From TPA_inf: Saccharomyces (Eukaryota): 64,000 bases of DNA. The translations under genes were made by a program, and so were the position numbers. Below, piece after piece: positions 2,732-28,345 of the stretch. The notes beneath the pieces were generated by a model that saw only the letters and a list, made by a program, of their open reading frames with translations, did no database searches and had not been told where the DNA came from. The first letter of the stretch is position 1; each line of letters opens with the position of its first letter. The DNA is taken from positions 352,001 through 416,000 of the forward strand of contig BK006946.2 in the NCBI GenBank assembly GCA_000146045.2, given 5' to 3'.

Positions 2732-3383
2732 TCTTATCGATTTCCGTATATAATTCATAGACGAGCATTAAGAGGAAAAAGCTGTTTCCGTACCAATTAA
2801 AGAAAGATAGACAACAAGAACAAAAACGTACATTACTCTATATTGAAAAAAGCCCTATGTCGGTAAAAGAATAGGAAGTACCTTAGTCATCGGCACTTAC
2901 CTTTTTTTTTACGATTACTTCTGGTTTGTTTCTTTGCCTCATTTCATTTTGCTGCCACTTTCTTTCATAGGCAAGAAGATTCAATCAAATCTCCCCTTCT
3001 CCTTCCCCGGATATATAAAATATAAATATAAAACTTTAAGAATATAAAAATATGAGAAACCACACATAACTTGTATACTTTACTCACATACACACATTTC
3101 CAAAAAAATTATAATGTTAATTACATTGCTTTTAATGCTAATCTTTTTTTAGTTGTATAATCATTACCATATAAATGCCTCTCGGTCTAATTTCATTGCC
3201 AGTATTGTAAGTTATATACTTTTATACGAGTGTACGGAAAATATCGTGGCTCCCCGTTAACAGTGAAATAAATCTACGCATGTAGCTGCCAGTTTTTTAA
3301 GCGTTATATCAATATTGGTAAAGTAAGAATTGACGAAGAAATTGTTAACTACATTTTTCAGAACGGCGTGTCATTCTCCGATA

Positions 3384-4811
3384 ATGTCTGAAGCGATATT
3401 CCAGCCAACGGACATTGTCCTTGCCAAAGTTAAAGGCTTTTCAGCATGGCCAGCAATGATTATCCCTAATGAACTCATCCCAGATAACATCCTCAAGACC
3501 AAACCTGTGAGTGTCCACAAAGGCAAATCAGGTAGTGATAAAAAAGCAAATGAAGATATAGATGCAGACATGGAATCAGAGGCTAGAGATCGAGAGCAAA
3601 GCGAAGAAGAAGAAGATATAGAGGATTTTGGTGAGAGTGAGGCTAATCCTGAAAAATTTATAATATACACTCCCGTTCTGAAGTTTCGTAAAAATGATAC
3701 GTTGAAATCGACTTACTGCGTCAAGTTTTTTTGCGATGATTCTTATATCTGGGTGAAGCCCATGGATATGAAGATTCTAACAAGCGAAGATTGTCGTAAG
3801 TGGCTAAGCGGCAAACAGCGGAAGAATAAGAAACTCATACCGGCATATGAAATGGCTATGAGAGGCAAAAATGGAATTGATATTTGGGAATTTGTGGAAT
3901 ATGGGTCTTACGGCAAGCCAGATGAAGAGGAATATGTAGAGGAAGAGGAAGAAGAGAACGAACCTGAAAAAAAGGCTATAAGGCCAACCAGGTCTTCCAG
4001 TAGACAGCGTCAGAAGCGCGCCTCAGAAACGGAAAAGAGTGAGGGCGGTAATAGCAATAAAAGGAAAAGAGTTACTAGATCGACTAGGCAACAAGCGATA
4101 GATGCTTCAGAAGAGGAAGAGGAGGAAGAGGAGGAAAAAGTACAAGAGGCTGTTAGAAAGAGGCCGCAAAGGACCAAAACTAAGAAAGTTGTAGTATCCA
4201 AGACTAAACCAAATCCAAAAACAAAGGCAAAGAAAGAGAAACCTAAACCACCTAAGCCAATCAAATATCATTTTGAAGATGATGAAGATTGGAGCATTGT
4301 TGGGTTGGGCCCACAAGATCTATCAATCGAAAAAACGATGGATCCGATTGCGAAAAAACTGTCGCAGAAGAAAAATCTAGAAAAGCATGTGGAGATTAAG
4401 CTAGATCTGGAGGATAAACTAGCAGGTATCAACAAGCTCCTGTGTGATGTCTTATGTTCAGCCATTAACCAGGCTGTTTCGATAAAGGATGATTTCGAAA
4501 TAATATTAGATGAATTGCAGATTGCCCTTGACACCAGGGGGTCCAGAAACGAATTTATAACAATTTTCCAATCAAATAATTCCCTACTGTTAAACTTTAG
4601 GATATTATTTAACTTAAGAAAAAGGGAACTGAACAAATGGGATCTGTGGGATCGTTTCCAGGATATTTTCAAGCATATTTATTCCTACCAGTTCATACCT
4701 GATACGGAAGATTGGCAACTAGAGCAAAATATGGAAATTGAAGAAATGGATCGGGAAAAGCCGAGCTTTAGTGAAGACGTAAAGGAAGAAGAAAGCAAAG
4801 TAGGAGCATGA
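3384..4811 (+). CDS. IOC4: IOC4, PWWP-domain subunit of the Isw1b chromatin remodelling complex, 475 aa
   Basis: It has a PWWP-like N-terminus (DIVLAKVKGFSAWPAMIIP) and long acidic and basic low-complexity stretches. I placed the start at MSEAIFQ to give the known 475 aa. Confidence 0.8.
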   Translation: MSEAIFQPTDIVLAKVKGFSAWPAMIIPNELIPDNILKTKPVSVHKGKSGSDKKANEDIDADMESEARDREQSEEEEDIEDFGESEANPEKFIIYTPVLKFRKNDTLKSTYCVKFFCDDSYIWVKPMDMKILTSEDCRKWLSGKQRKNKKLIPAYEMAMRGKNGIDIWEFVEYGSYGKPDEEEYVEEEEEENEPEKKAIRPTRSSSRQRQKRASETEKSEGGNSNKRKRVTRSTRQQAIDASEEEEEEEEEKVQEAVRKRPQRTKTKKVVVSKTKPNPKTKAKKEKPKPPKPIKYHFEDDEDWSIVGLGPQDLSIEKTMDPIAKKLSQKKNLEKHVEIKLDLEDKLAGINKLLCDVLCSAINQAVSIKDDFEIILDELQIALDTRGSRNEFITIFQSNNSLLLNFRILFNLRKRELNKWDLWDRFQDIFKHIYSYQFIPDTEDWQLEQNMEIEEMDREKPSFSEDVKEEESKVGA

Positions 4812-5004: not shown

Positions 5005-5336
5005 TGAGAAATGGGGGAATGTTGAGATAATTGTTGGGATTCCATTGTTGATAAAGGCTATAATATTAGGTATACAGAATATACTAGAAGTTCTCCTCAA
5101 GGATATAGGAATCCTCAAAATGGAATCTATATTTCTACATACTAATATTACGATTATTCCTCATTCCGTTTTATATGTTTCATTATCCTATTACATTATC
5201 AATCCTTGCACTTCAGCTTCCTCTAACTTCGATGACAGCTTCTCATAACTTATGTCATCATCTTAACACCGTATATGATAATATATTGATAATATAACTA
5301 TTAGTTGATAGACGATAGTGGATTTTTATTCCAACA
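5005..5336 (-). repeat. Ty1 3' LTR (delta), 332 bp
   Basis: Canonical delta sequence, identical to the copy at 10587-10918. Confidence 0.95.
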
Positions 5337-5358: not shown

Positions 5359-8300
5359 CTAATGAATCCATTTGTTTGTTAATAGTTTGAATGTTTTTAT
5401 CGGAAGAGGTTTGGTCATTACGTCTGCAATATTCTTTTTGGTTTCGATATAGCATACGTGCAGATGATTTCCTGATACTTCATCTCTCAGTCTCATTGCT
5501 TTAGTACCAAAAAATCTGTTTCTAAATTTCTCTTCATTATTGGATATAATTATACTGATTGTAGATTTACTGTCGGTTAGTAATCCTTTGGTAATTGGTT
5601 TCTTGTCGAGTTCTTGTATCAGGTAACTTAGATTATTTAATAATGGGACAGATTCACTTATTGCGTGTATTTCTGCTTCCGTAGTTGAAGTACATGTTAA
5701 TGAAGCCTTGGTGGACTTTCCTCCAATTACTTTTCCATTAAGTAAATATATGTTGCCAATTTGTGATTTATAATACGGTTGGTTACCATACGATGCATCG
5801 CTTATAACAACTAATTTATTTGTTGGCTTAACAGGTTTGCTTTTGTGCCATATTAATTGCTTATCTCTCGTATTCCATATGAACTGTATCAATTCATATG
5901 TCATATCTAACACTTGCTTGGACGGAAATAGTATATGTTGTGCAAGTGTGTTGATGTAGTATAATAGGTCAAATCTAAATTTATATCCAACATATGATGC
6001 TAGACCTATCAGCTTTTGCATTTCATGTACCTTCATTTTGTAATCATCTTCTTCTAGCTCTAGTTCTTGCTGGTCTATATATAGACCTGGTTGACCTGGA
6101 GCGCTAAGTTTCCTTCCTTTTGGGTTCAAAGGTACGTTTAGTTTGGGTATTTTTTCAGTTAATGAGTTTTCCATACCCAATTTCATGTATTTACCTCTTT
6201 GGTATTTGATTTCCAAGCCAAGAATGTCATATTGAATTTCCTCATCACTTTCGCCTAGATTTATAATCTTGGTGTCGTATTGCATCTTAAGCTTGTCTAT
6301 AATTCTTTTGTTTGAATTTAGATTTTTGCTAAACAGTACCATATCATCTACGAATAAACAAATTGTCACTTGACTGTTTTCAAATACGCATGACCATCCA
6401 CGAACTTCTTCCATACCACACTGTTTTATCAGGTATGATTTGATAGTTTCGTACCAGTTCGCTCCACTTTGTTTCAATCCATAAAGTGATTTCTTCAAAC
6501 GTATCAACTTATCATTCATTCCTAAATGTGGTGGAGGTCTTATGTATAATTCTTCTTTGATGTCTGCATACAAATATGCCGAAGATATGTCTAATTGTGT
6601 AATATAGTAGTTATTGTCTAATGCAAGTGACAGGGATGTCATTAATGCATAGTGATGTACGGTATTGGATTGCATGCCTGAGTCGTAAGTGTCAGGATGC
6701 TGAATATCACCTCTTGCAACAAATCTAGCTTTATGAGTACCGTCACGTTTCCTGTTGAAGATAAACATTGAATTTATTACTCTTTTAGGGTCTATTTCTT
6801 TTCTGTCATAATATTTGTCAGTGTCCCAAGTTTTCATCTTCAACAGTTGATTGACTTCTTTGTGGTATGCCTCGATATATTTTTCTTTTTCTTTAATATC
6901 TTTATTATAGGTGATTGCCTCATCGTATCGTAAGGTTGTTCGTATTGGTTTGATTGATTTTACTGCTTTTACAGCTGCAATCAGGTGGATTCGTTTCTTC
7001 GATCTCGGAGGTTCTAAACTACGCATATTCTTAGTATTCCATGTGTCTCGTGATACCTTAATTTCAGTTTCATTATCTTCTAATGATCTTTTCTTACTGT
7101 TGATAGTAGTATAGGCATTAGAGTCACCAATACCACCCAAACTGGAATTAGTTTGACGAGAATTGATCGGTGGAAGTTCTTTAAAGGAGTCTGATAATTC
7201 GGTAGGAGGTTCTGGAGGCAGATCGGGAAGTGGAAGATCAGCAATTATAGATTCCTCTGTATTCTCCTTAGGACAGGTATCTGACGTTTTGATAGGAACG
7301 ACGTGGTGTAGTGAATTACTTTCTGATGAGGAAGTATCGATCGAAGGTGAACGGTGTATGATCCTTTTCTCAGTCTCCTGTTCGCTTGTCTGCGGAACAG
7401 TTTTATTATTGGTACCACCCGTACTGGATATTGGTACGTTTGTATGATTAGTCTCATTGTCACTGTACGAGTCTGAGTGTCTGAAATCTTTAGATTTACT
7501 GGCGTGCGACGACTCATGTGTGTTAGATTGGGACATGGGAGCAAGTAAAGGAACATCTAATCTATGCATACCACCCGAACCGGTACTCTCGATATCGGAA
7601 ATTTGGGGGGTGCTAGATCTCTTCTTAGATGGAAGAATATTAGATTCAGATATGTTGGGGTCAACTTCTCTGGGTGCGCGAATATTGGTTTTGGAAACAC
7701 GTTTCGAATCTTCAGTATGAGTTGACGGAGGTGTGGAATCGGTTGGACTCACAGCTTTTGAAAGGACATTTCTCAGTTGCTCAGGATGTAGTTCAATGTC
7801 AGATTGGAAGTCATGGTCAGATTCTATGTTAAGATCATTGGATTGTTGGATCTCATTTGACGCAATGAACGAATGATATGAAGCAGTTAAACGGTTTAAG
7901 TCTTCATCGAAAGTGAGTGCGTCGTAATTGAATTGATCTAATCTGGATTCCTTGCCCTGAAGAATAACATAGTTAGTTGTATCTACTGTCTTCTTTAAGG
8001 ACGGAAGATAGATGATATATCCATAAGAGTTTCGAGACGGATGTAGAGCGTAGCCTGGGATGCCACGAGGATGTATTTTGGAGTTAGGGTTGTGATCATT
8101 GACGATAACAGGTTGACCGAAAGGTAACAAAGTACTGATATCAAGTCCTGCCAAGCCAGCATGTTGTCTTGCAGATTTTTTGCTTTTAGGTGAAGCTAGT
8201 GAATTTCTCACAATAGTAGAAAATTCGATTGCAGAGAACCATAAATGGTTCGGTAAACCACTACATTGCAGTTGAGTACGGCAGTCATCTAATAAGGTAC

Positions 8301-9078
8301 GGTTTAGCCGTTCAGCGACTCCATGTGCTCGGGAATCCGCTGTGGTTGTATAGCATGGAGTTATACCATTTTTTTCAAGGAATTTATGGAGAGTTCTGTT
8401 AGTATACTCAGAACCACGGTCCATTTGTATAACTAAGACACTGGCCTGAAACTGGTTTTTAATAAAAGCTAGTATCGTAGTAAAAACATCGAGGATAGAG
8501 TCCTCGCGACGGTCGTGTAATGGATAAACCCAACGGAATTTTGTTGTCTCATCAGTAAATGAGATGAAATAGGATGGTGCACTTTTTGGTAGGTTGTGAA
8601 CTGGACCAAATATGTCAGTATGTAGGTATTGAAAGGGTTCGTATGAATTTTGGTATTTTAGTCGTGAACCTTTGATATGTCTGTGTTTGGTGCTTTTGCC
8701 GATTAAACAATCAGGACATTGATAGTCAATAGCACTAGACCAGTCGACATCTGATTCGTTAAAATACGTGATGGTGTTATTTTTAAGTGAGTATCGAATT
8801 GTCTGTGCATTGGCATGTGCAAGCATTCGATGAATGAAAGGATAAGGATATTTGCGTGTACTTTCACTTGTATGGACATTATTGATGGTGGGTACGGAGA
8901 TATTTGATGGAAGCAAGTACTTTTTAGATACCCAGTAAAAGTCTCCATATTTTACGATAGGTGCAAGTACAGTGCCGTCAGATCGTTCTAAGACGTTTTT
9001 GGTAAAGCATGCTGTGATATCTACTGCAGCCAATTCATTCAAACTGAGTAAGTCATAGGCTATGTTAGGAGTGTGCAA
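5359..9078 (-). CDS. TYB: Ty1 TYB (Pol: protease, integrase, reverse transcriptase, RNase H); the ORF shown runs from its first Met
   Basis: The 1239-aa ORF carries integrase (HTDIFGP...DRGSEY) and reverse-transcriptase (YVDDM) motifs. It is expressed as a Gag-Pol fusion after a +1 frameshift at the CTTAGGC heptamer, so the true Pol frame opens upstream to about 9320. Confidence 0.95.
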
Positions 9079-9304
9079 TACCTTTATTGATGTTTTGGTG
9101 TTGTCCTGGAAGTGAAATTGTAGGTCACCAATAGCGTTAATTGGTATATTTCTTTTTTGAGCATCAACTACGTTTATGTCAGGATTAGATGATGCTGAGT
9201 GTATGTGATGAGCAGATCTTATAAGGGTTCGTGATGCTCCTGAATCAAGAAGGAGGTGTCCAGGGAGTTTATCATCAGAATGATTAGTGTGATTTACCGT
9301 AGAT

Positions 9305-10627
9305 TCAGTAAGTTCCTGGCCTAAGGTGAAGGTCGTGTGTATTCTTCAATTGAATCGGTTCAGTAGTCGATCCTCTTATGAGATCGTTATCAGGGCCGGG
9401 AGAGTTATTAAATGTGGATACGTTATGAGCCCTGGCTGTTCTTGATTGCGAATTATTTGGTTTTTGGGAATTCCGAGTTATGGATTTGGGTTTGGTTGTA
9501 TTCGTATAGGTGCGAGAGTCTTTCTTCTCATCACTCGGACTTCTCCTATGAGTAGATTTATTACGTTTTGATTCCTGTTGTTCTTCATACATAGAATGTA
9601 TGTCTGAAAACAGATCAGCAACTGTCATATGTATACATCGATGACGTGCGTAGCGTAAAAATTTGTACTCGCCAGATAGACCTCTCATAATGAATTGGCA
9701 TGCTACCTTGTTATTGATAGGAATACCATTGTTGTTTAGTCTGTCAAGAATGTTTGTGACTTCTGCTTCAAATGCATCTGCAGGTGTACTTCCATTATAA
9801 TGCAAAGTTGCTAGGGTCGTAATGTCATTTACCTCTTGAGTATCAGACTGCATTTTGTTAATGCTTTTGGAAAGAATTTTCATGATATCTGTATAATCAA
9901 CAGATAAGATGTCTTTAACCCAGGGGGGTAAGAATTGAGATGGAGCAAATAGTTGAAAGGTGTGACATAAGAAGGTGAGTTCGTCATCAGTCATCTGACG
10001 TACGGCTTTTCTTGTTGCTGTCGGAATAATATCACCGAGATTCGAATTTTGTAAAAATTTAATGTATATTTTAACCCAATTGAGAAAGTCATTAGGTGAG
10101 GTTAAGATTGGCGGTGGTCTGACATGTTGATTAGTGGATGTCATATTAGACTTTGCTGAGGATGAATCAGGAAATGAATTACCTGACTCAGGTGACGGGG
10201 TGTTCAAATGTGTTCCAACATATTGTGGATATTGTGTAAACTGTGATTGTGCCCCAGGTGGAGCGTACATAGGTGACATTTGATAAGGTGGATACGGCAT
10301 CAAGGATGGGTGCCCGTATACTGGCCAGCCAGAAATATTGGCTTGTTGGGTATTCATCATGCGCTGCTGTGGGTACGGCCCATTTTGTGGCAATGGTACT
10401 TGAGCAGCTTGAGGAGAGGCATGATGATGGTTCTCTGGAACAGCAGATGAGAGAGGTGTTGTTGGCTGTTGAGAATTAGCCTGAGTGGAAACCTTCTCAC
10501 ATTCTTCTGTTTTGGAAGCTGAAATGTCTAACGGATCTTGAGTTGTTTGGACTTCTTTAGAAGTAACCGAAGCACAGGCGCTACCATGAGAAATGGGGGA
10601 ATGTTGAGATAATTGTTGGGATTCCAT
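9305..10627 (-). CDS. TYA: Ty1 TYA (Gag), 440 aa, divergent Ty1-prime-like variant
   Basis: The protein starts [26 protein letters not shown], and its ATG lies inside the 5' LTR. It differs at many positions from the canonical Ty1 Gag found in the second element. Confidence 0.95.
9319..9325 (-). promoter_or_regulatory. Ty1 programmed +1 ribosomal frameshift heptamer CUU-AGG-C
   Basis: The plus strand reads gcctaag, the reverse complement of CTTAGGC, located 12 nt upstream of the TYA stop within the TYA/TYB overlap. Confidence 0.9.
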
Positions 10628-10918
10628 TGTTGATAAAGGCTATAATATTAGGTATACAGAATATACTAGAAGTTCTCCTCAAGGATATAGGAATCCTCAA
10701 AATGGAATCTATATTTCTACATACTAATATTACGATTATTCCTCATTCCGTTTTATATGTTTCATTATCCTATTACATTATCAATCCTTGCACTTCAGCT
10801 TCCTCTAACTTCGATGACAGCTTCTCATAACTTATGTCATCATCTTAACACCGTATATGATAATATATTGATAATATAACTATTAGTTGATAGACGATAG
10901 TGGATTTTTATTCCAACA
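10587..10918 (-). repeat. Ty1 5' LTR (delta), 332 bp; contains the TYA start codon
   Basis: Identical to the LTR at 5005-5336. Confidence 0.95.
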
Positions 10919-11063
10919 TCATTTTCAATGAAGCTGTGACCTTGGCATTCGCACCGCTTGACACTACAGGACGAATAAATTCCATGTTCGGGTGGTGGCT
11001 AGAGGTACATATGCGGTAAATGTACTGTATAGCCCAGCATGTTTTTCTTAACAATCCAAGTTT

Positions 11064-11135
11064 GCCATCTTAGTATAGTGGTTAGTACACATCGTTGTGG
11101 CCGATGAAACCCTGGTTCGATTCTAGGAGATGGCA
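11064..11135 (+). tRNA. tH(GUG): tRNA-His (anticodon GTG)
   Basis: The sequence gccatcttagtatagtggttagtacacatcgttgtggccgatgaaaccctggttcgattctaggagatggca is followed by a T-run terminator. It lies 145 bp from the Ty1 LTR. Confidence 0.9.
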
Positions 11136-11363
11136 TTTTCTTTTTTTTTCAAAGAAAAGAAAAAGGGAAGGCAACAAACGACATGAATTATTGTCTTTTT
11201 CAAAAGGATGTAATTATCGCAGCAGGTCTATGAAGGGTCCCTTTTCTCTTTTTTATCACTTGTTCCATCTATAATTTTATACTCAAAAATTTAACAGGTT
11301 AATTACACTAAATGCATTACAAATTTGTATTTGATTCTATATATAGTTTCGTTATATAATAAC

Positions 11364-16093: not shown

Positions 16094-18517
16094 CTAGGTG
16101 GTCCATAAGCGAGCCGTATTATCAGCACCGGCAGAAAACAGCCAAGCTTCCCTCGGATGCCAAATAGCATCAAGAACACCCAGACTATTGATTACTTTAT
16201 GACCGGTTAGTTTCTTTAGTGGCACAATCATCGGATTTTTCATCATGTCATCATAAACAGTGGCATGGAAAACATGTATGGTACCGTCATCAGCGGCAGA
16301 GCTGAATAGAGGTAACTTTTTGTGGAAATTCACACTTCTGACGGCTTTTTCATGATATCTTAGTGTCTTGTAAGGTGTGCTAGCCAAATCCAGGTCGTGC
16401 CATAAAACTCTCTTGTCAAACGATGACGCAATTAAATTATCACCCCTTGGGTGAATATCGATTTTCGATAACCAACGGGCACCAGGCAACAGTTTCTTGA
16501 CCAATATTTGTTGAGATAAATCATAAATTCTGACATATCTTTGGGAACAGACAAATAATTGAGGTTTAAAAGGATGGAACTTCGCATCCATAATAATGCC
16601 CTTCGATTTTTTGAATGGGGATTGGGTTAAATGCTTGGAAACTTGGTGAATCAAAACAGAAGTGTTACCAGAGTCAGGTTGAACAGTGACAAAGTAATCA
16701 CCTTTTCTATGCCATGAAAGCTTTTTTACTGTTTTTTTGCAAGAAATAGTGATACAAATATCCTTTTCTAGTTGCTTTTGAGAAGGCTTGTTCCATTGGG
16801 CTACTTGTTTTTTTACAGCATTCTTAGCAGATTCATTCTCTCCATCTTCATCGCCATCACCATTCTCGTTCACTTCTAGGTTAGATTTTTTAACAGTCCC
16901 AAAAGTATCGTAGCCAAAACCATCTTCAATCTTAGTTTTGCCGTTATTTTCAATATCGTAGCCGAATATTGGTGGTACTATTAAATGAATGTTTTCACCA
17001 ACAGCAACGGCGAGAATACCATTATTAGCATCAGGATTCCATTCAATGCATTCAATGTGGTAATCTGGGTTTTCCTCGTCATCGATTAAAGTAGTTCTAT
17101 AAACTTCTCTACCAGTTAAAATTTCCCATACCCTGACTGTTCCGTCATCAGATCCTGTTGCTAGCCATAATCCAGAAGGATCAATGGATAATGTGCGTAC
17201 TTTTCCTTTGTGACCAGCGTATATTGTTGAGCAACGAATAGGGAAGGGTCTTAAATCCTTGGGAGAGGGAAGTTCTGGAATTAGAGAATTAGGATCAATA
17301 TTCAATTTGTTTTTACGGACACGAGGAGCTAAATATAAATCCAAAGATCTTTCAAATCTTTCCCTAATAGATTCACCGTAACCAGGGACCTTTCTTAAGG
17401 CAGAATACTTTTGAGGTATGAAGTTTCTTTCTCTTTCACTATATTCAGTATTTTCCCAGGCCTCCTTTTCTTCAGGAGACAAAAGATACTCTTCTGGTGG
17501 ATTATAACTCTCTTCATTAGTTGGTGGAGGTAATTTTGGTGCCCTTAGATGCATTACATGATCATTTGTTTCCGTAGAATCACCCCATAAATCGTATTGA
17601 TAGTTTTCAATTTTTTCCTTTTCTTTCATTTCCTTTAATTTTTTAGGAGGAATAATACGGCCCTCTCTGATAGCTCTTACAATTTTCATAACTCTCTTGG
17701 CTTCGTTTTTGGATGGAACAAATCTTCTTTTTGGCTCCGGAACAGCAGTTAATGGCATCACTTCTTCGTGTCTCGTGAACCAATCGATTAACGGTTCGTA
17801 TGGATTTATGCTATCATCAGTTTGTTCGTTCCTTTGGATTTTGGAAATAAGTTCTAATTCCTCTTTGGTTAAGTTCAAACTTGAACCGGAATTCTTGTCC
17901 AGTAAACCAGTCCAGCCTTCAGGTAGCTCGATAGAATCCAACAGTTGATCTAAAGCAGAACCCTTGGCAGGTCTCATAATCCTTTTACCGTTGATATCGT
18001 ATCCAATGTGTGGCATTTCATCGTATGCAGAAAGTGGAATATTACCAATGGTATTTTGCGTTTCGGCATCACTATCATCGCTATCATAAACTGGATTAAT
18101 TTCAGGTTTGATAATTCTATCACTGCCATCTGCATATTTTGAGTAAATATTCGGATCAACGATCGTTTGCAATTTCACACCCGATAATCTGTCTGTTAAG
18201 GAAGTTGTGTCGTCTGAAAACTCAGAACTGTCATAGTCCTCTTCCCCATCACCTTCTTCTTCGGCAAGCAGTTTGTTTAATTCAGCATCGGAGTCATCAT
18301 CAGAATCATCTTGGGCTTCTTTATCAGAAGATGATTCCTTTTCTTCAACGGCAGACTCGTATTCGTCATCATCCTCGTCACTCTCACTTGCTTCCGCATC
18401 GATCAAACCGTCAACGGATAAAAGCTTGTCCTCATCTTCCTCGACATCAGATTCTTCGCTAGCTGCTCTCTTTTTCGACATCTTTGCCTCGGTAGTTTTG
18501 TTGTTCTTAGCCATCAT
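16094..18517 (-). CDS. ERB1: ERB1, WD40-repeat 60S ribosome biogenesis factor (BOP1 orthologue), 807 aa
   Basis: It has an acidic N-terminus with D/E/S runs and a C-terminal WD40 region. The length is 807 aa. The promoter carries PAC and RRPE motifs. Confidence 0.9.
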
Positions 18518-18604
18518 TGACCTAGTTATGTTAGAACAGATTTAATACAGTACCTTTCTTCGCTAGGATCTATATGCGAATATATCACATATGTAAATTA
18601 TAAG

Positions 18605-18635
18605 CTCATCGCAAAACCAAAAAAAAAAAAATTTT
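18605..18635 (-). promoter_or_regulatory. PAC (GCGATGAG, seen here as ctcatcgc) and RRPE (AAAAATTTT) ribosome-biogenesis promoter motifs upstream of ERB1
   Basis: ctcatcgc sits at 18605-18612 and aaaaaatttt at 18626-18635, about 90-120 bp upstream of the ERB1 ATG. This is the classic arrangement for ribosome-biogenesis regulon genes. Confidence 0.7.
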
Positions 18636-20444
18636 CAATAATTTTTCACTAATCTTCAAAAACAAATGGGGTAACCCGTACAAGAGTTATTAAAACCCAA
18701 AATGACAAAATCGCGACAATTCAATCCTACTTAATTAGCAATAACATACTAGCGGTAGAGCTACTATCACATGTTGAACCTTGAATGCTCAATTCATTGT
18801 ACTCAATACTGCTATCAAAAGAAAAAAAATGTATTAATTATATTCTTGTCAAAATCAATTTTACACTATAAGAGGAAAATGTTCTTCAGTCCTAGTAACA
18901 TTAGTTTTCTCCCTTTGCTAGAGACTTTACATAATATCCTAGAAGGTAAAATTCGATAATACAGCAGTAAAGTCGTATATTGGTAGCAATCCTTGGTGAC
19001 GCTGACTTTTTTTTTTTGTAATTTTATTGTTTAGTTCATGATAAAAAACTTCAAATCACTTTTAATCTGGTAGACAGAGAAAACAAATCGAAACGAAAAT
19101 AGAGAACTACGAATAAAAAAATATAAGTGGAGAAGATCGTCACTACGCATTAAACAATATTGATCGCTCAATGCCAGTACTGCGCGTAAAAGTTTAGTAA
19201 CTTAACGATTTAGGCACAATTTGAGAAAAATTTCGCCCTGCAGTAAGTATGTTATTCAGTACGATATAAAGCTGAGGTTTTATGCTGGCAACGTTCAGAT
19301 TTTTTAGGTTATCAGCAATGTTAAAATATTAAATAGGATACTTTTATTGTTTGAGACCACCCTCAATGCCAGATATGTTAAACGCTTTTTTCTGGAGTGA
19401 GGTATCATAGAAAAAGGCTCGAGTACATCAAGCACTTAAAGGTTCAACACTCTACTGTTACTTCTTTAAGCTAAGCTATTCATACATAATAGTCCATCAA
19501 AGTGGCTCAAATTGCGCATACAGTGTAAAAATGCGTTCAGGGAATAACGATGTCAAGCAGCGTGTGAAAATTGGACACGTTGAATAATAAACTTCCTGGA
19601 AACCGTCGCGCGCCACTGCTGTCAGAAAATAGTAGACTACTTAATTTTCAATTCATATTTAGCCTGCTTTTTGATCTATGAAATCGCCCACTCTAAATCA
19701 GCGGTGTTTTTGCACGGTTTGTAATTTTAACTTCATTATATGTATTATTCGGTGACTTCACTAAAAAAGAAGGATCTATGCAATATTCTTATCTTCTATT
19801 TTTTTTCTTTTCGATTTTTGAAGTTAAACCTTCGTAATGAACAGATTCGAACAGTATACAGCTGATGACAATTACATGTTAAACTTTCATTGATGATAAT
19901 GGCACGCACTCCACCTGTTAAAGAGGCAGAACGAAGAACCTTTGCTTATAACATAGGTCAGTGTATACTGGATAATAGTATCGAATAACCAGCATAATAT
20001 TTTCTCTGGAAATACCTTTAAGGGGTTTTTAGAAGAAAAACAAATCCTAGTGCAACTTGCAAGTCATCAAAAATAATCTATCTTATCTCTATATATATAT
20101 TTGTGTATTTTATATTTTATGACAAAGCTAGAAATATAAAATCAGATACCGCAATAGAAGATATTTCAAATAATAATACCAATCTCATAGCTCAAAACAG
20201 GCACTAAGGGAATACTGAAGAAAGTAATGTCTAGGAGTTAGTATAGCTTGAAGTTGCCATCGGTGTCATTTAGGTAGATCTATCTAGATTACGCGCAGCC
20301 CTCAGAAAAGCAAGTGATTTCCGAAGTTTCAACCTACCCAGACTATTCACATAAGGTTAATTTATGATTGAACAGTTCAAATAAATCTGCGCCATTCATG
20401 AAGATGATTCGATACCGCAATATGCTGCTAAAGTGCTAAAAAAA

Positions 20445-20518
20445 TGATTTCGCCCAGGATCGAACTGGGGACGTTCTGCGTGTTAAGCAGATGCCATAAC
20501 CGACTAGACCACGAAACC
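20445..20518 (-). tRNA. tV(AAC): tRNA-Val (anticodon AAC)
   Basis: The reverse complement reads ggtttcgtggtctagtcggttatggcatctgcttaacacgcagaacgtccccagttcgatcctgggcgaaatca. An A-run on the plus strand, which is the terminator T-run on the minus strand, sits at 20437-20443. Confidence 0.9.
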
Positions 20519-20626
20519 AGGTTTTATTGAAAAATTGCATCTAAAATAACCTATACTAATAAATCTTCTAATAAATCTTCTAACTCTTCGCTGTTCTATG
20601 TGATATCGTTGATAGTTAGGTTTTCG

Positions 20627-20696
20627 TGTTGAAATAATCAATTACATTTATTGACTGGTTTAATATTAATATATTATCATATACAGTGTAAGAAGG
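20627..20696 (+). repeat. Segment 1 of 3 of an old solo delta LTR in plus orientation, interrupted by the Ty1-4 insertion
   Basis: The stretch tgttgaaataatcaattacatttattgactggtttaatattaatatattatcatatacagtgtaagaagg aligns with the delta 5' end (TGTTGGAATAGAAATCAACTATCATCTACTAACTAGTATTTACATTACTAGTATATTATCATATACGGTGTTAGAAGA). Confidence 0.75.
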
Positions 20697-21034
20697 TGAG
20701 ATATATGTGGGTAATTAGATAATTGTTGGGATTCCATTGTTGATAAAGGCTATAATATTAGGTATACAGAATATACTAGAAGTTCTCCTCGAGGATATAG
20801 GAATCCTCAAAATGGAATCTATATTTCTACATACTAATATTACGATTATTCCTCATTCCGTTTTATATGTTTATATTCATTGATCCTATTACATTATCAA
20901 TCCTTGCGTTTCAGCTTCCTCTAACATCGATGACAGCTTCTCATAACTTATGTCATCATCTTAACACCGTATATGATAATATATTGATAATATAACTATT
21001 AGTTGATAGACGATAGTGGATTTTTATTCCAACA
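20697..21034 (-). repeat. Ty1 3' LTR (delta), 338 bp
   Basis: Identical to the copy at 26285-26622. Confidence 0.95.
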
Positions 21035-21056
21035 TACCACCCATAATGTAATAGAT

Positions 21057-24000
21057 CTAATGAATCCATTTGTTTGTTAATAGTTTGAATGTTTTTATCG
21101 GAAGAGGTTTGGTCATTACGTCTGCAATATTCTTTTTGGTTTCGATATAGCATACGTGCAGATGATTTCCTGATACTTCATCTCTTAGTCTCATTGCTTT
21201 AGTACCAAAAAATCTGTTTCTAAATTTCTCTTCATTATTGGATATAATTATACTGATTGTAGATTTACTGTCGGTTAGTAATCCTTTAGTAATTGGTTTC
21301 TTGTTAAGTTCTTGCACAAGGTGACTGAGGTTATTTAATAATGGGACAGATTCACTTATCGCGTGTATTTCTGCTTCCGTAGTTGAAGTACATGTTAATG
21401 AAGCCTTGGTGGACTTTCCTCCAATTACTTTTCCATTAAGTAAATATATGTTGCCAATTTGTGATTTATAATACGGTTGGTTACCATACGATGCATCGCT
21501 TATAACAACTAATTTATTTGTTGGCTTAACAGGTTTGCTTTTGTGCCATATTAATTGCTTATCTCTCGTATTCCATATGAACTGTATCAATTCATATGTC
21601 ATATCTAACACTTGCTTGGACGGAAATAGTATATGTTGTGCAAGTGTGTTGATGTAGTATAATAGGTCAAATCTAAATTTATATCCAACATATGATGCTA
21701 GACCTATCAGCTTTTGCATTTCATGTACCTTCATTTTGTAATCATCTTCTTCTAGCTCTAGTTCTTGCTGGTCTATATATAGACCTGGTTGACCTGGAGC
21801 GCTAAGTTTCCTTCCTTTTGGGTTCAAAGGTACGTTTAGTTTGGGTATTTTTTCAGTTAATGAGTTTTCCATACCTAATTTCATGTATTTACCTCTTTGA
21901 TATTTGATTTCTAAGCCAAGTATGTCGTACTGAATTTCGTTATCACTTTCACCCAGATTTATTATCTTTGTATCGTATTGTTTCTTGAGTGTTGTTATGA
22001 TTTTCTTATTTGCATTTAAGTCTTTGCTGAACAATATCATATCATCAACGAATAAGCAAATTGTTACTTGACTATTCTTAAATACGCATGACCATCCACG
22101 AACTTCTTCCATACCACACTGTTTTATCAGGTATGATTTGATAGTTTCGTACCAGTTCGCTCCACTTTGTTTCAATCCATAAAGTGATTTCTTCAAACGT
22201 ATTAACTTATCATTCATTCCTAAATGTGGTGGAGGTCTTATGTATAGTTCTTCTTTGATGTCTGCATACAAATATGCCGAAGATATGTCTAATTGTGTAA
22301 TATAGTAGTTATTGTCTAATGCAAGTGACAGGGATGTCATTAATGCATAGTGATGTACGGTATTGGATTGCATGCCTGGGTCGTAAGTGTCAGGATGTTG
22401 AATATCACCTCTTGCAACAAATCTAGCTTTATGAGTACCGTCACGTTTCCTGTTAAAGATAAACATTGAATTTATTACTCTTTTGGGGTCTATTTCTTTT
22501 CTGTCATAATATCTGTCAGTGTCCCAAGTTTTCATCTTCAACAGTTGATTGACTTCTTTGTGGTATGCCTGGATATATTTTTCTTTTTCTTTAATATCTT
22601 TATTATAGGTGATTGCCTCATCGTATCGTAAGGTTGTCCGTATTGGTTTGATTGATTTTACTGCTTTTACAGCTGCAATCAGGTGAATTCGTTTCTTCGA
22701 TCTCGGAGGTTCTAAACTACGCATATTCTTAGTATTCCATGTGTCTCGTGATACCTTAATTTCAGTTTCATTATCTTCTAATGATCTTTTCTTACTGTTG
22801 ATAGTAGTATAGGCATTAGAGTCACCAATACCACCCAAACTGGAATTAGTTTGACGAGAATTGATCGGTGGGAGTTCTTTAAATGGGTCAGGGAATTCGG
22901 TAGGAGATTCTGGAGGTAGATCAGGGAGTGGGAGATCAGCGATGATAGATTCCTCGGTATTCTGTTCAGAAACAGTAGTTGGCGTTTTGATAGGAACAAT
23001 ATTGTGCGATGAATTATTTTCCGGTGGAGAAGCATCGATTGAAGGTGAACGGTGTATAATCCTTTTCTCAGTCTCTTGGTCACTTATCTGCGGAACAGTT
23101 TTGTTGTTGGTACCACCCGTACTGGATATTGGTACGTTTGTATGATTAGTCTCATTTTCACTGTACGAGTCTGAGTGTCTGAAATCTTTAGATTTACTGG
23201 CGTGCGACGACTCATGTGTGTTAGATTGGGACATGGGAGCAAGTAAAGGAACATTTAATTTATGCATACCACCCGAACCGGTACTCTCGATATTGGAAAT
23301 TTGGGGGGTGCTAGATCTCTTCTTTGATGGAAGAATATTAGATTCAGATATGTTGGGGTCAACTTCTCTGGGTGCGCGAATATTGGTTTTAGAAACACGT
23401 TTCGAATCTTCAGTATGAGTTGACGGAGGTGTGGAATCGGTTGGACTCACAGCTTTTGAAAGGACATTTCTCGGTTGCTCAGGATGTAGTTCGATGTCAG
23501 ATTGGAAGTCATGGTCAGATTCTATGTTAAGATCATCGGATTGTTGGATCTCATTTGACGCAATGAACGATTGATATGAAGCAGTTAAACGGTTTAAGTC
23601 TTCATCGAAAGTGAGTGCGTCGTAATTGAATTGATCTAATCTGGATTCCTTGCCCTGAAGAATAACATAGTTAGTTGTATCTACTGTCTTCTTTAAGGAT
23701 GGAAGATAGATGATATATCCATAAGAGTTTCGAGACGGATGTAGAGCGTAGCCTGGGATGCCACGAGGATGTATTTTGGAGTTAGGGTTGTGATCATTGA
23801 CGATAACAGGTTGACCGAAAGGTAACAAAGTACTGATATCAAGTCCTGCCAAGCCAGCATGTTGTCTTGCAGATTTTTTGCTTTTAGGTGAAGCTAGTGA
23901 ATTTCTCACAATAGTAGAAAATTCGATTGCAGAGAACCATAAATGGTTCGGTAAACCACTACATTGCAGTTGAGTACGGCAGTCATCTAATAAGGTACGG

Positions 24001-24776
24001 TTGAGCCGTTCAGCGACTCCATGTGCTCGGGAATCCGCTGTGGTTGTATAGCATGGAGTTATACCATTTTTTTCAAGGAATTTATGGAGAGTTCTGTTAG
24101 TATACTCAGAACCACGGTCCATTTGTATAACCAAGACACTGGCCTGAAACTGGTTCTTAATAAAAGCTAGTATCGTAGTAAAAACATCGAGGATAGAGTC
24201 CTCGCGACGGTCGTGTAATGGATAAACCCAACGGAATTTTGTTGTCTCATCAGTAAATGAGATGAAATAGGATGGTGCACTTTTTGGTAGGTTGTGAACT
24301 GGACCAAATATGTCAGTATGTAGGTATTGAAAGGGTTCGTATGAATTTTGGTATTTTAGTCGTGAACCTTTGATATGTCTGTGTTTGGTGCTTTTGCCGA
24401 TTAAACAATCAGGACATTGATAGTCAATAGCACTAGACCAGTCGACATCTGATTCGTTAAAATACGTGATGGTGTTATTTTTAAGTGAGTATCGAATTGT
24501 CTGTGCATTGGCATGCGCAAGCATTCGATGAATGAAAGGATAAGGATATTTGCGTGTACTTTCACTTGTATGGACATTATTGATGGTGGGTACGGAGATA
24601 TTTGATGGAAGCAAGTACTTTTTAGATACCCAGTAAAAGTCTCCATATTTTACGATAGGTGCAAGTACAGTGCCGTCAGACCGTTCTAAGACGTTTTTGG
24701 TAAAGCATGCTGTGATATCTACTGCAGCCAATTCATTCAAACTGAGTAAGTCATAGGCTATGTTAGGAGTGTGCAA
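21057..24776 (-). CDS. TYB: Ty1 TYB (Pol); the ORF shown runs from its first Met
   Basis: The ORF is 1239 aa. Its first ~400 aa are identical to Ty1-3 TYB, with scattered differences in the integrase C-terminus and in RT/RNase H. Confidence 0.95.
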
Positions 24777-25002
24777 TACCTTTATTGATGTTTTGGTGTT
24801 GTCCTGGAAGTGAAATTGTAGGTCACCAATAGCGTTAATTGGTATATTTCTTTTTTGAGCATCAACTACGTTTATGTCAGGATTAGATGATGCTGAGTGT
24901 ATGTGATGAGCAGATCTTATAAGGGTTCGTGATGCTCCTGAATCGAGAAGGAGGTGTCCAGGGAGTTCATCATCAGAATGATTAGTATGATTTACTGTAG
25001 AT

Positions 25003-26325
25003 TCAGTAAGTTTCTGGCCTAAGATGAAGGTCGTGCTTATTGTTCAATTGAATCGGTTCAGTAGTTGATTTACTGATGGAATCGTTGTCCGTGCTGGGAG
25101 AGTTATTAGATGTGGATACATTGTGAGCCCTGGCTGTTTTCGATTTCGAATTATTTGTTTTTTGAGGATTCCGAGCTATAACTTTGGGTTTGGTTGTATT
25201 CGTATAGCTGCGAGAATCATTCTTCTCATCACTCGGATTTCTCCTGTAATTAGGTTTGCTGTTTCTCGATCCCTGTTGTTCTTCATAAATAGCATGGATA
25301 TCTAAGAACAGTTCAGCGACTGTCATATTTAGATGTCGATGACGTGTGTAGCGTAAAAATTTATATTCGCCAGATAGACCTCTCATAATTAATTGGCATG
25401 CGACCTTGTTATTGATATGAATGCCATTATTGTTCAGTCTGTCGATAATGTTTGTGACTTTTGTTTCAAATGCATCTGCAGGTGTACTGCCATTATATTG
25501 CAAATTTGCCAGGGTCACAATGTCGTTTGCCTCTTGGGTATCAGATTGCATTTTTTCAATACTTTTGGAAAGAATTTTCATGATATCCGTATAATCAACG
25601 GATAGGATGTCTTTGACCCAGGTAGGTAGGAATTGAGAGGGAGCAAATATTTGAAAAGTGTTATACAAGAAGGTGAGTTCATCATCAGTGATCTGACGTA
25701 CGGGTTTTCCGTTTACTGTCGGAATAATACCACCGAGATTCGAGTTTTGTAAAAATTTGATGTATGTTTTAACCCAATTTGGAAAATCATTAGGTGAGGT
25801 TAACATTGGTGGTGGTCTGACATATTTTTTAGTGGATGTCATATCAGAGTCCGCTGAGGATGAATCAGTAAATGTATTACCTGACTCAGGTGATGGAGTG
25901 CTCAGAGGCGTTCCAACTGATGATGGATACTGCGGAAACTGTGATTGTGGCCCAGGTGGAAAGTACATAGGCGACATTTGATAAGGTGTATACGGAATCA
26001 TAGATGGGTGTCCGTAAAATGACCAACCAGATGGATTGGCTTGGTTTTGGGTCATCATGCACTGCTGTGGGTACGGCCCATTCTGTGGAGGTGGTACTGA
26101 AGCAGGTTGAGGAGAGGCATGATGGGGGTTCTCTGGAACAGCTGATGAAGCAGGTGTTGTTGTCTGTTGAGAGTTAGCCTTAGTGGAAGCCTTATCATAT
26201 TCTTGAATTTTGGAAGCTGAAACGTCTAACGGATCTTGATTTGTGTGGACTTCCTTAGAAGTAACCGAAGCACAGGCGCTACCATGAGATATATGTGGGT
26301 AATTAGATAATTGTTGGGATTCCAT
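25003..26325 (-). CDS. TYA: Ty1 TYA (Gag), 440 aa, canonical Ty1 type
   Basis: The protein starts [39 protein letters not shown] and ends ...[10 protein letters not shown]. It matches the Ty1-H3-like Gag I remember. Confidence 0.95.
25017..25023 (-). promoter_or_regulatory. Ty1 +1 frameshift heptamer CUU-AGG-C
   Basis: The plus strand reads gcctaag, 12 nt upstream of the TYA stop. Confidence 0.9.
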
Positions 26326-26622
26326 TGTTGATAAAGGCTATAATATTAGGTATACAGAATATACTAGAAGTTCTCCTCGAGGATATAGGAATCCTCAAAA
26401 TGGAATCTATATTTCTACATACTAATATTACGATTATTCCTCATTCCGTTTTATATGTTTATATTCATTGATCCTATTACATTATCAATCCTTGCGTTTC
26501 AGCTTCCTCTAACATCGATGACAGCTTCTCATAACTTATGTCATCATCTTAACACCGTATATGATAATATATTGATAATATAACTATTAGTTGATAGACG
26601 ATAGTGGATTTTTATTCCAACA
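26285..26622 (-). repeat. Ty1 5' LTR (delta), 338 bp
   Basis: Identical to 20697-21034; contains the TYA ATG. Confidence 0.95.
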
Positions 26623-26737
26623 GAAGGTGATCTAAAGATTGAGAAACAGTCACCAGATTTAGGGGAAGCTGAAATGCAATGATTGATAATGTAATAAGAA
26701 GCGAGAGGGAAAGTATAAAAAGGAAGTGATCAATTTG
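26623..26737 (+). repeat. Segment 2 of 3 of the old plus-orientation solo delta; it resumes immediately after the Ty1-4 target-site duplication
   Basis: The stretch gaagg|tgatctaaagattgagaaacagtcaccagatttaggggaagctgaaatgcaatgattgataatgtaataagaag aligns with the delta region GAAGATGACGCAAATGATGAGAAATAGTCATCTAAATTAGTGGAAGCTGAAACGCAAGGATTGATAATGTAATAGGATCAATG. Confidence 0.75.
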
Positions 26738-27061
26738 TGAATAATTTGATAACCGTTGGGATTCTATTGTTCGCAAGGGCTTTATTTTATTATGTGTACA
26801 GAATATAATAAAATTTCCCCTGAGAGATATACCAATCCTCAAATTGGAATCGATACTCCTATATAATACAATTACAATTATTTCTCCCTCCCTTTCGTAT
26901 GTTTCATTATCCTAGTACATTATCAATCCTTATATTTCTGCTTCCATTAAATTTTACGACTGTTTCTCAATGTTTAGATCATCTTCTTACACTGTATATG
27001 ATAATGTACGAGTGGCATGAATACTACTGAACAGATGATATTTTATAGCTTCATTCCAACA
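26738..27061 (-). repeat. Degenerate solo delta LTR in minus orientation, ~324 bp, inserted into the older plus-orientation delta
   Basis: It starts tgaataatttgataaccgttgggattctattgttcgcaagggc, matching the Ty1 LTR start tgag..ataattgttgggattccattgttgataaaggc. It ends ...agcttcattccaaca (reverse complement of TGTTGGAATGA) and is collinear with delta throughout, with many substitutions. Confidence 0.75.
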
Positions 27062-27220
27062 GAAAGAACATAAAGTAATATCGTTACGTAAAACTATCGA
27101 TTCCCTTTTGACGATTCCTACATCCTCGAGAAGAAGTTCTAGTATATTCTGTGTACCTAATATTGTAGGCTCTAACAACAATGGAATCCCAACAATTAAT
27201 CATCTTGATTATTTTATTCC
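27062..27220 (+). repeat. Segment 3 of 3 of the old plus-orientation solo delta (3' part)
   Basis: The stretch ...gattcctacatcctcgagaagaagttctagtatattctgtgtacctaatattgtaggctctaacaacaatggaatcccaacaattaatcatc aligns with the delta 3' end ...GATTCCTATATCCTCGAGGAGAACTTCTAGTATATCTACATACCTAATATTATTGCCTTATTAAAAATGGAATCCCAACAATTACATC. The three segments sum to about 343 bp, close to one full delta. Confidence 0.7.
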
Positions 27221-27302
27221 CCGCGTTTTAGAGCATCAATCTTGCCAGCTTATAGCTGGTCATTGTCGACGATAATCTCAAGCACAGGGCTAAAAAATAA
27301 AT

Positions 27303-27408
27303 TGAAACGGACAGGAATTGAACCTGCAACCCTTCGATTGCAATCTTATTCCGTGGAATTTCCAAGATTTAATTGGAGTCGAAAGCTCTACCATTGAGCC
27401 ACCGCTTC
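27303..27408 (-). tRNA. tW(CCA): tRNA-Trp (anticodon CCA) with a 34-nt intron
   Basis: The reverse complement reads gaagcggtggctcaatggtagagctttcgactccaa[intron]atcgaagggttgcaggttcaattcctgtccgtttca. An A-rich run on the plus strand lies before 27303. Confidence 0.88.
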
Positions 27409-27585
27409 AACTTTTATTGTTTATATTGACACCTGTATAACAATATAACCACAATAAAAGGTTCATTCAAAGCTCCGGCTAGCATTCGGCGATTAATGAA
27501 GAAAGTTAAACCGTGATTTATTACTTCTTGCTCGTTTTTTCCATCATAAGTTCGCACAGAGCAGTATATATAGTGATTTGCAAAT

Positions 27586-28200
27586 ATGAATAGCGGTGGT
27601 AGTGATAGTTTCGATTATCTTCTTCAATTAACAAAAGCTTTAAGTGCAGAGTGTCGGGCTAACAGACAAGAGACCGATCGAATAGAACTATTGTTAAAGC
27701 GCCTTGCCAAACAGTCAGGAATATCTTATGATAATTTGAGCAAAAACATAATTCCAGATTCATGGAAAGATAATGCATCTCAAAAAGCATCTCCCCCCAC
27801 TGAGGCACAGAAGCTTATCAGCGAAAATTTTAAACTCATATACGAGATTGAAAAACAAGAGTACTTCAATACAAAGGCTGTTGCGCTAATTAACAACATA
27901 AATGAGCATTTCTCATATATTAAAAATTTTATCGACGAACAGAATGCAATAAGAGAACGAAATATTGCCACATTTTCATCAGAGAAGCTTGATGAAAGGA
28001 ACAAAAGTCTTCAACAAAATTACGAGTCATTGAAGACAGAAAATGAAGAAACAAAAAAAAAATTGCATTCAATTATCAAACAGTTTGAAAAACTTTTGAA
28101 GGAAGTGGATTGGGATCGTATATCTAAAGATTCCAGAGATTACAGCCGCTTTAAAAAACAGTTGGAATACCTGCAAGACACGTACCAGGTACTGAAATAG
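27586..28200 (+). CDS. FAR3: FAR3, pheromone-arrest / Far complex coiled-coil protein, 204 aa
   Basis: The ORF is 204 aa, predicted coiled-coil, and sits between tRNA-Trp and STB2. Confidence 0.8.
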   Translation: MNSGGSDSFDYLLQLTKALSAECRANRQETDRIELLLKRLAKQSGISYDNLSKNIIPDSWKDNASQKASPPTEAQKLISENFKLIYEIEKQEYFNTKAVALINNINEHFSYIKNFIDEQNAIRERNIATFSSEKLDERNKSLQQNYESLKTENEETKKKLHSIIKQFEKLLKEVDWDRISKDSRDYSRFKKQLEYLQDTYQVLK

Positions 28201-28345
28201 CCTACGATGGATCGAACAAAAGTGTAAGCAGACGTGAAATAGCAAACCTTTGAATGCATTTATATATTTTAATATACTTATAACAACGGATAAATGTTTA
28301 GATCCCTTTTGAAAAAAAAAAAAAATTAGGATGAACCGAAAAAAA

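Follow-up and report, generated by a model that had tools for sequence, protein, structure and literature searches.

Layered Ty1-family insertions in a solo delta upstream of a tRNA-Val gene on Saccharomyces cerevisiae chromosome XIII

Upstream of the tRNA-Val(AAC) gene on chromosome XIII of Saccharomyces cerevisiae, an old solo delta, that is a long terminal repeat (LTR) of the Ty1 family standing alone, is interrupted at two separate points by a full-length Ty1, YMRCTy1-4, and by a second solo delta, YMRCdelta11, both in the orientation opposite to that of their host. The host, YMRWdelta12, lies on the plus strand of the window, the stretch of 64,000 nucleotides that was analysed here as a whole and that corresponds to positions ~352,000-415,999 of the chromosome (a window coordinate is the sacCer2 coordinate minus 351,999). 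The reading proposed for this locus, to which we would give a probability of about 0.93, is that of layered Ty1 insertions at an integration hotspot upstream of tV(AAC), a gene transcribed by RNA polymerase III (Pol III).

The nested arrangement is already known: it is annotated in SGD and has been published at base-pair resolution by Carr, Bensasson and Bergman, who annotated it with REannotate (Carr et al., 2012, PLoS One 7:e50978, PMC3511429, Files S2 and S3). In their File S3 the host is chrXIII_s325+_TY1, a plus-strand element in three fragments under one element id (sacCer2 372626-372695, 378622-378698 and 379074-379197), while chrXIII_i11-_TY1 (372696-378621) and chrXIII_st163-_TY1 (378731-379060) lie on the minus strand and are each classed as 1-nested. 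Their File S2 equates the three with the SGD features YMRWdelta12, YMRCTy1-4 and YMRCdelta11, respectively, of which the first is fixed in 31 of 31 strains and the last in 27 of 27, whereas YMRCTy1-4 is polymorphic (present in 3 of 21). Elements, strands and nesting are identical to those described below, and the coordinates match after subtraction of 351,999. The differences concern degenerate stretches, in which the published RepeatMasker fragments stop short (in window coordinates, the second host fragment ends at 26699, the third starts at 27075 and the minus-strand delta starts at 26732); here the minus-strand delta has been extended to its TG terminus at 26727 and the pentamers GGAAG and GAAAG have been identified at its flanks.

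The host delta and the full-length Ty1

The host delta consists of three plus-strand fragments. Fragment A (20627-20696) starts with TGTTGAAAT and ends with the left copy of the pentamer GAAGG (20692-20696), fragment B (26623-26726) begins with the right copy of the same pentamer (26623-26627) and ends with GGAAG (26722-26726), and fragment C (27062-27216) begins with GAAAG (27062-27066) and has a degenerate 3' end, placed at about 27216-27221. A BLAST comparison of the Ty1 LTR with the window gave three plus-strand matches, in which LTR positions 43-86 correspond to 20661-20703 (the region of fragment A, E 8e-7), 92-151 to 26640-26699 (E 3e-12) and 192-315 to 27075-27198 (E 9e-38), all on one strand and collinear. 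After removal of the inserts, the rejoined pieces were aligned globally to the 338-bp Ty1 LTR, with which they are collinear from end to end at ~80% identity, and the fragments do not overlap in LTR coordinates once the inserts and one duplication copy are taken out. A preliminary description of this stretch, made from the sequence alone, had assembled the three pieces into one plus-strand delta into which a full-length Ty1 and another delta had inserted; the alignment bears out the assembly, the lack of collinearity that would have refuted it not being observed, and the REannotate annotation and the empty-site alleles described below agree with the two insertions.

The first interruption is YMRCTy1-4 (chrXIII_i11-), which occupies 20697-26622 on the minus strand (5,926 bp). 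Its 3' LTR (20697-21034) and 5' LTR (26285-26622), each of 338 bp and both on the minus strand, are identical at 338 of 338 positions, as had been stated beforehand, and read TGTTGG...TCTCA on the element strand. A perfect target-site duplication, GAAGG, is seen at 20692-20696 and 26623-26627; it had been described as lying inside the host delta, and it is a real duplication, the empty-site alleles holding a single GAAGG. The element holds a TYA open reading frame (ORF) of 440 aa (25003-26325), with PF01021:TYA reported on the identical protein, and a TYB ORF of 1239 aa (21057-24776), with PF00665 rve and PF07727 RVT_2 on the identical protein. The 5' LTR is adjoined by TGGTAGCGCC, which we take to be the Ty1 primer-binding sequence, complementary to initiator tRNA-Met: the reverse complement of 26270-26289 reads TCTCA followed directly by TGGTAGCGCC. 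Direct LTRs, a 5-bp duplication, coding capacity for TYA (Gag) and TYB (integrase and reverse transcriptase) and a length of ~5.9 kb are thus all present, as in a full-length Ty1, a copia-type LTR retrotransposon (Pseudoviridae).

In LTR coordinates the Ty1 cuts the host at position about 70 and the minus-strand delta cuts it at about 170, and neither insert lies inside the other. One host LTR contains two level-1 insertions next to each other, in keeping with the label 1-nested that both inserts carry in the published annotation, and nesting to a depth of three is not found; the term triple-nested, used in the preliminary description, is a misnomer.

Terminus and flanks of the minus-strand delta

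The second interruption, YMRCdelta11 (chrXIII_st163-), spans 26727-27061 on the minus strand (335 bp) and is seen to have TG...CA termini, with delta homology over its full length and no internal Ty sequence. In the BLAST comparison the Ty1 LTR matched it on the minus strand over LTR positions 52-332 (27008-26733, E 1.5e-47), and the end-to-end alignment of its 335 bp with the Ty1-4 LTR gave 248 matches, 82 mismatches and 13 gap columns. It had previously been delimited as 26738-27061 (324 bp), so that the 11 bases 26727-26737 (TGATCAATTTG) were left to the host. These bases are the degenerate terminus of the minus-strand delta, their reverse complement, CAAATTGATCA, being comparable with ...CATATATCTCA or ...CCAATTTCTCA in other deltas. 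The distance between two conserved anchors inside the delta, measured in a small delta library from 31 loci, leads to the same boundary. This spacing is 61 or 67 nt in 28 library copies and 63 in a copy from Saccharomyces paradoxus; in the host it is 78 with the earlier junction, 67 with both pentamers kept and 62 with one of them removed. A start at 26738 was rejected because the host would then hold 11-17 extra bases between the anchors (78 vs 61-67).

With the termini corrected, the flanks of the minus-strand delta are GGAAG (26722-26726) and GAAAG (27062-27066), which match at 4/5 positions; in this sequence context, 2.0-4.4% of pentamer pairs, random or adjacent, agree at least as well. 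The earlier statement that the element has no clean duplication, with atttg on one side and gaaag on the other, arose because its left boundary was misplaced and is an artefact of that boundary. A terminus misplaced by a few bases can therefore mask a target-site duplication and falsely suggest recombination. The one-copy (62) and two-copy (67) spacings each fit a known length class, and the only delta that tells them apart is that of S. paradoxus (63, gap-free): the host, less one pentamer copy, has TATAAAAAGGAAGAACATAAAGTAAT where the S. paradoxus delta has TATAAAAGGAAAGAAGATAAGGTAAT, and the two align without gaps. Because the one-copy host is gap-free and collinear with the S. paradoxus delta, the comparison favours GGAAG and GAAAG as the two copies of a 5-bp duplication that would since have decayed, and arrival of the minus-strand delta by ordinary integration is considered very probable.

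The preliminary description had offered recombination as an alternative to a decayed duplication, and we regard it as improbable that the minus-strand delta reached its present flanks by recombination between different Ty or delta copies. Such an origin is in line with the difference between the flanking pentamers at one position (GGAAG vs GAAAG), with a purine-rich context that could imitate a duplication and with the occurrence of LTR-LTR recombination at this very locus, where one strain has a chimeric delta (L011) and another a solo LTR (L002), both described in the next section. Ectopic recombination would, however, delete, invert or replace host sequence, whereas fragments B and C share one strand and are contiguous in delta coordinates to within 5 bp; furthermore, the pentamers that match at 4/5 positions directly adjoin the TG...CA termini, and one substitution in 10 bases is what would be expected for an element ~25% diverged from active LTRs. 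Since a probable 4/5 duplication is present at the corrected ends, recombination need not be invoked for this element. If an uninterrupted orthologous host were to read GGAAGGAAAG at the site, this would mean that there was no duplication and would favour a non-integrative origin of the minus-strand delta.

Alleles in other strains and the order of events

The survey of alleles covered public assemblies in which FAR3 or one of its variants was sought; the short-read contigs among them (L004-L010, L012, L013 and L029) break at repeats and are uninformative. The empty-site alleles that the preliminary description had proposed to look for in other strains were found in three assemblies (L014, L015 and L016), in which the host is uninterrupted at the Ty1 site and reads ...CAGTGTAAGAAGGTGATCTAAAG... 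with a single GAAGG. In the same three assemblies the minus-strand delta and fragment C are present with 98.5-98.8% identity. These alleles, in which A and B are continuous, prove the A/B junction and leave very little room for the view that two or three separate truncated deltas, standing in order by chance, gave rise to the three plus-strand pieces: truncated LTR fragments are indeed frequent near tRNA genes (Carr et al., 2012, File S3) and fragment A taken alone aligns weakly (E 8e-7), but B and C abut in delta coordinates with an overlap of at most 5 bp and no missing block, and REannotate independently linked all three pieces as chrXIII_s325+.

Other strains have further alleles at this hotspot. 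In L002 (GCA_000975975.3) a solo LTR at 8358-8695, which corresponds to window 20697-21034 joined to 26285-26622 and is identical to the Ty1-4 LTR at 338 of 338 positions, stands between two copies of GAAGG and is the LTR-LTR recombination product of the Ty1-4 insertion itself. An extra delta in the same assembly (9647-9983), in minus orientation and with about 90% identity to the Ty1-4 LTR, has a perfect TATAG duplication; its insertion point corresponds to window 27568-27572, which is upstream of the FAR3 ATG by only 14 bp and of the tRNA-Trp gene by about 160 bp. In L003 (GCA_016858165.1, 1-9037) two Ty1 elements with a shared middle LTR (Ty1-LTR-Ty1) are found at the Ty1-4 site, and the shared LTR has a different terminus (TGAGAAATGGGTGAATG...); the arrangement could be a real tandem or an effect of the assembly.

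In strain AMM (L011, GCA_947369785.1, 3057-9636) bases 1-19 of the host are retained, and after them comes a young plus-strand delta whose sequence passes into the host tail near LTR position 315, so that the LTR is chimeric. This composition implies a recombinational deletion of the minus-strand delta and of most of the host. The chimeric LTR is in turn split by an element of 6,224 bp. The two LTRs of this element (3263-3633 and 9116-9486), of 371 bp each, are identical, its ATCGT duplication is perfect and, judging by its size, it is probably a Ty4.

The host is older than both inserts because both are nested in it, and the minus-strand delta predates the Ty1 because L014-L016 have the minus-strand delta at an empty Ty1 site. 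The order host, minus-strand delta, Ty1 given in the preliminary description is thus upheld by the alleles and by the published annotation, while its derivation from degeneracy does not hold, the inner delta being more diverged than its host. The minus-strand delta is 75.2% identical to the Ty1-4 LTR and 74.0% to the LTR of YMRCTy1-3, another full-length Ty1 in the window, the host delta is 79.8% identical to the Ty1-4 LTR, and the two old deltas are 76% identical to each other. For this reason, ordering of the two old LTRs by divergence was rejected. The two probably derive from different old source lineages and, because of this, identity to modern LTRs is no clock here; LTR layers are dated more reliably from their nesting and from population alleles than from raw divergence.

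The locus was very probably built in three steps (distances are given in pre-insertion coordinates from the tRNA-Val 5' end at 20519). In the first, a Ty1-family element would have integrated in plus orientation 107 bp upstream of the tRNA gene, where the host delta now starts, and would have collapsed by LTR-LTR recombination to the solo delta YMRWdelta12. In the second, another Ty1-family element, in minus orientation, would have entered the host delta at a point about 170 bp from its start and about 276 bp upstream of the tRNA gene, duplicating a pentamer G(G/A)AAG, of which one copy would have decayed by a single base; this element, too, would have collapsed to a solo LTR, YMRCdelta11, and we infer full-length precursors for both solo LTRs. 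Both old LTRs then became fixed in S. cerevisiae. Much later, in the third step, YMRCTy1-4, likewise in minus orientation, inserted after the first 70 bp of the host delta, at 177 bp upstream of the tRNA gene, and duplicated GAAGG; this element has remained full length, its LTRs are identical and it is still polymorphic. The order of the second and third steps is shown by the population alleles.

Several observations weigh against this history. The older duplication is imperfect (4/5) and falls in a purine-rich stretch, and active deltas have GGAATGAGGAA at this place, so that GGAAG and GAAAG together could be native sequence; likewise, the spacing with both pentamers kept, 67, equals that of one class of active LTRs. 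The duplication flanking the host delta itself is weak (TTTCG vs TTCCC, 3/5). Divergence does not follow the nesting order, the inner delta being farther from active LTRs, a mismatch that different source subfamilies could explain. Finally, among the S. cerevisiae alleles with enough flank no allele lacks the minus-strand delta by simple absence: the sole one without it is that of strain AMM, where it was lost by a larger LTR-LTR deletion, in agreement with the fixation in 27 of 27 strains (Carr et al., 2012).

Upstream of its tRNA-Val gene, S. paradoxus (L017) has a plus-strand delta (8720-9036) that is 81% identical to the host delta, has the same orientation and lies 110 bp from the tRNA-Val gene, against 107 bp in S. 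cerevisiae, once a sigma element is excised. This sigma, a Ty3 LTR of 354 bp (8266-8619) with an AAAAA duplication, lies 15 bp upstream of the orthologous tRNA-Val gene. The left flanks of the two species can be aligned, with 72 matches and 20 mismatches (z = 5 against shuffles), but the right flanks cannot, and S. paradoxus has about 600 extra bp between the delta and the tRNA-Trp gene. Orthology of the two deltas is a tentative proposition at best, and an independent insertion at the same hotspot in S. paradoxus is at least as likely because the right flanks fail to align. If the deltas are orthologous, the host LTR is older than the split between S. cerevisiae and S. paradoxus and was kept in both species, and the S. 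paradoxus copy is a true pre-insertion allele with a single pentamer at the target of the minus-strand delta. Saccharomyces mikatae (L030) was considered as an outgroup and discarded, the region upstream of FAR3 being rearranged and unusable; in this species the 4 kb upstream of FAR3 (1-2825) contain Ty fragments (TYA, Pol_BBD) and a DUP-family gene.

Neighbouring genes and comparable systems

Over positions 18000-28285 the window is 100% identical to an S288C-derived assembly (L001), and ORFs resembling ERB1 and FAR3 are present in the region. The tRNA-Val(AAC) gene, found with ARAGORN, lies at 20444-20519 on the minus strand, so that the insertions are on its upstream side, at higher coordinates. 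On the other side of the cluster an intron-containing tRNA gene is found at 27303-27408, also on the minus strand (Rfam RF00005, 56.4 bits), with the LTR cluster on its 3' side. With the intron set after position 37, its sequence is that of a tRNA-Trp(CCA); the call Gly(CCC), made by ARAGORN with the option -i, was rejected, the intron having been misplaced by the tool. In a scan of 20000-28000 at the Rfam gathering threshold, the tRNA at 27303-27408 was the sole match, the tRNA-Val gene being missed.

The second full-length Ty1 in the window, YMRCTy1-3, is polymorphic (8/26; Carr et al., 2012, File S2). Its LTRs are 332 bp long and 96% identical to those of Ty1-4; the left one lies near 5005-5336, and the right one (10587-10918) ends 145 bp upstream of a tRNA-His(GTG) gene at 11063-11136.

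Taken as a whole, the locus is an ordinary textbook case, a Pol III gene targeted repeatedly by Ty1, and has little significance beyond bookkeeping. Ty1 integration is reported to take place upstream of Pol III genes, over a distance of about 1 kb and with a periodicity of about 80 bp (PMC3545840). All three insertions described here are located within about 1 kb upstream of the tRNA-Val gene, and further hits at the same place are found in other strains. The distances from one site to the next, about 70 and about 100 bp, are consistent with such a periodicity, which three sites cannot test. In nested clusters of LTR retrotransposons, such as the intergenic nests of maize, later elements insert into earlier ones and thereby give a relative chronology. 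The cluster upstream of tV(AAC) differs from nests of the maize type in that its depth is only one and in that it is driven by targeting to a Pol III gene and not by a preference for repeat-rich DNA.

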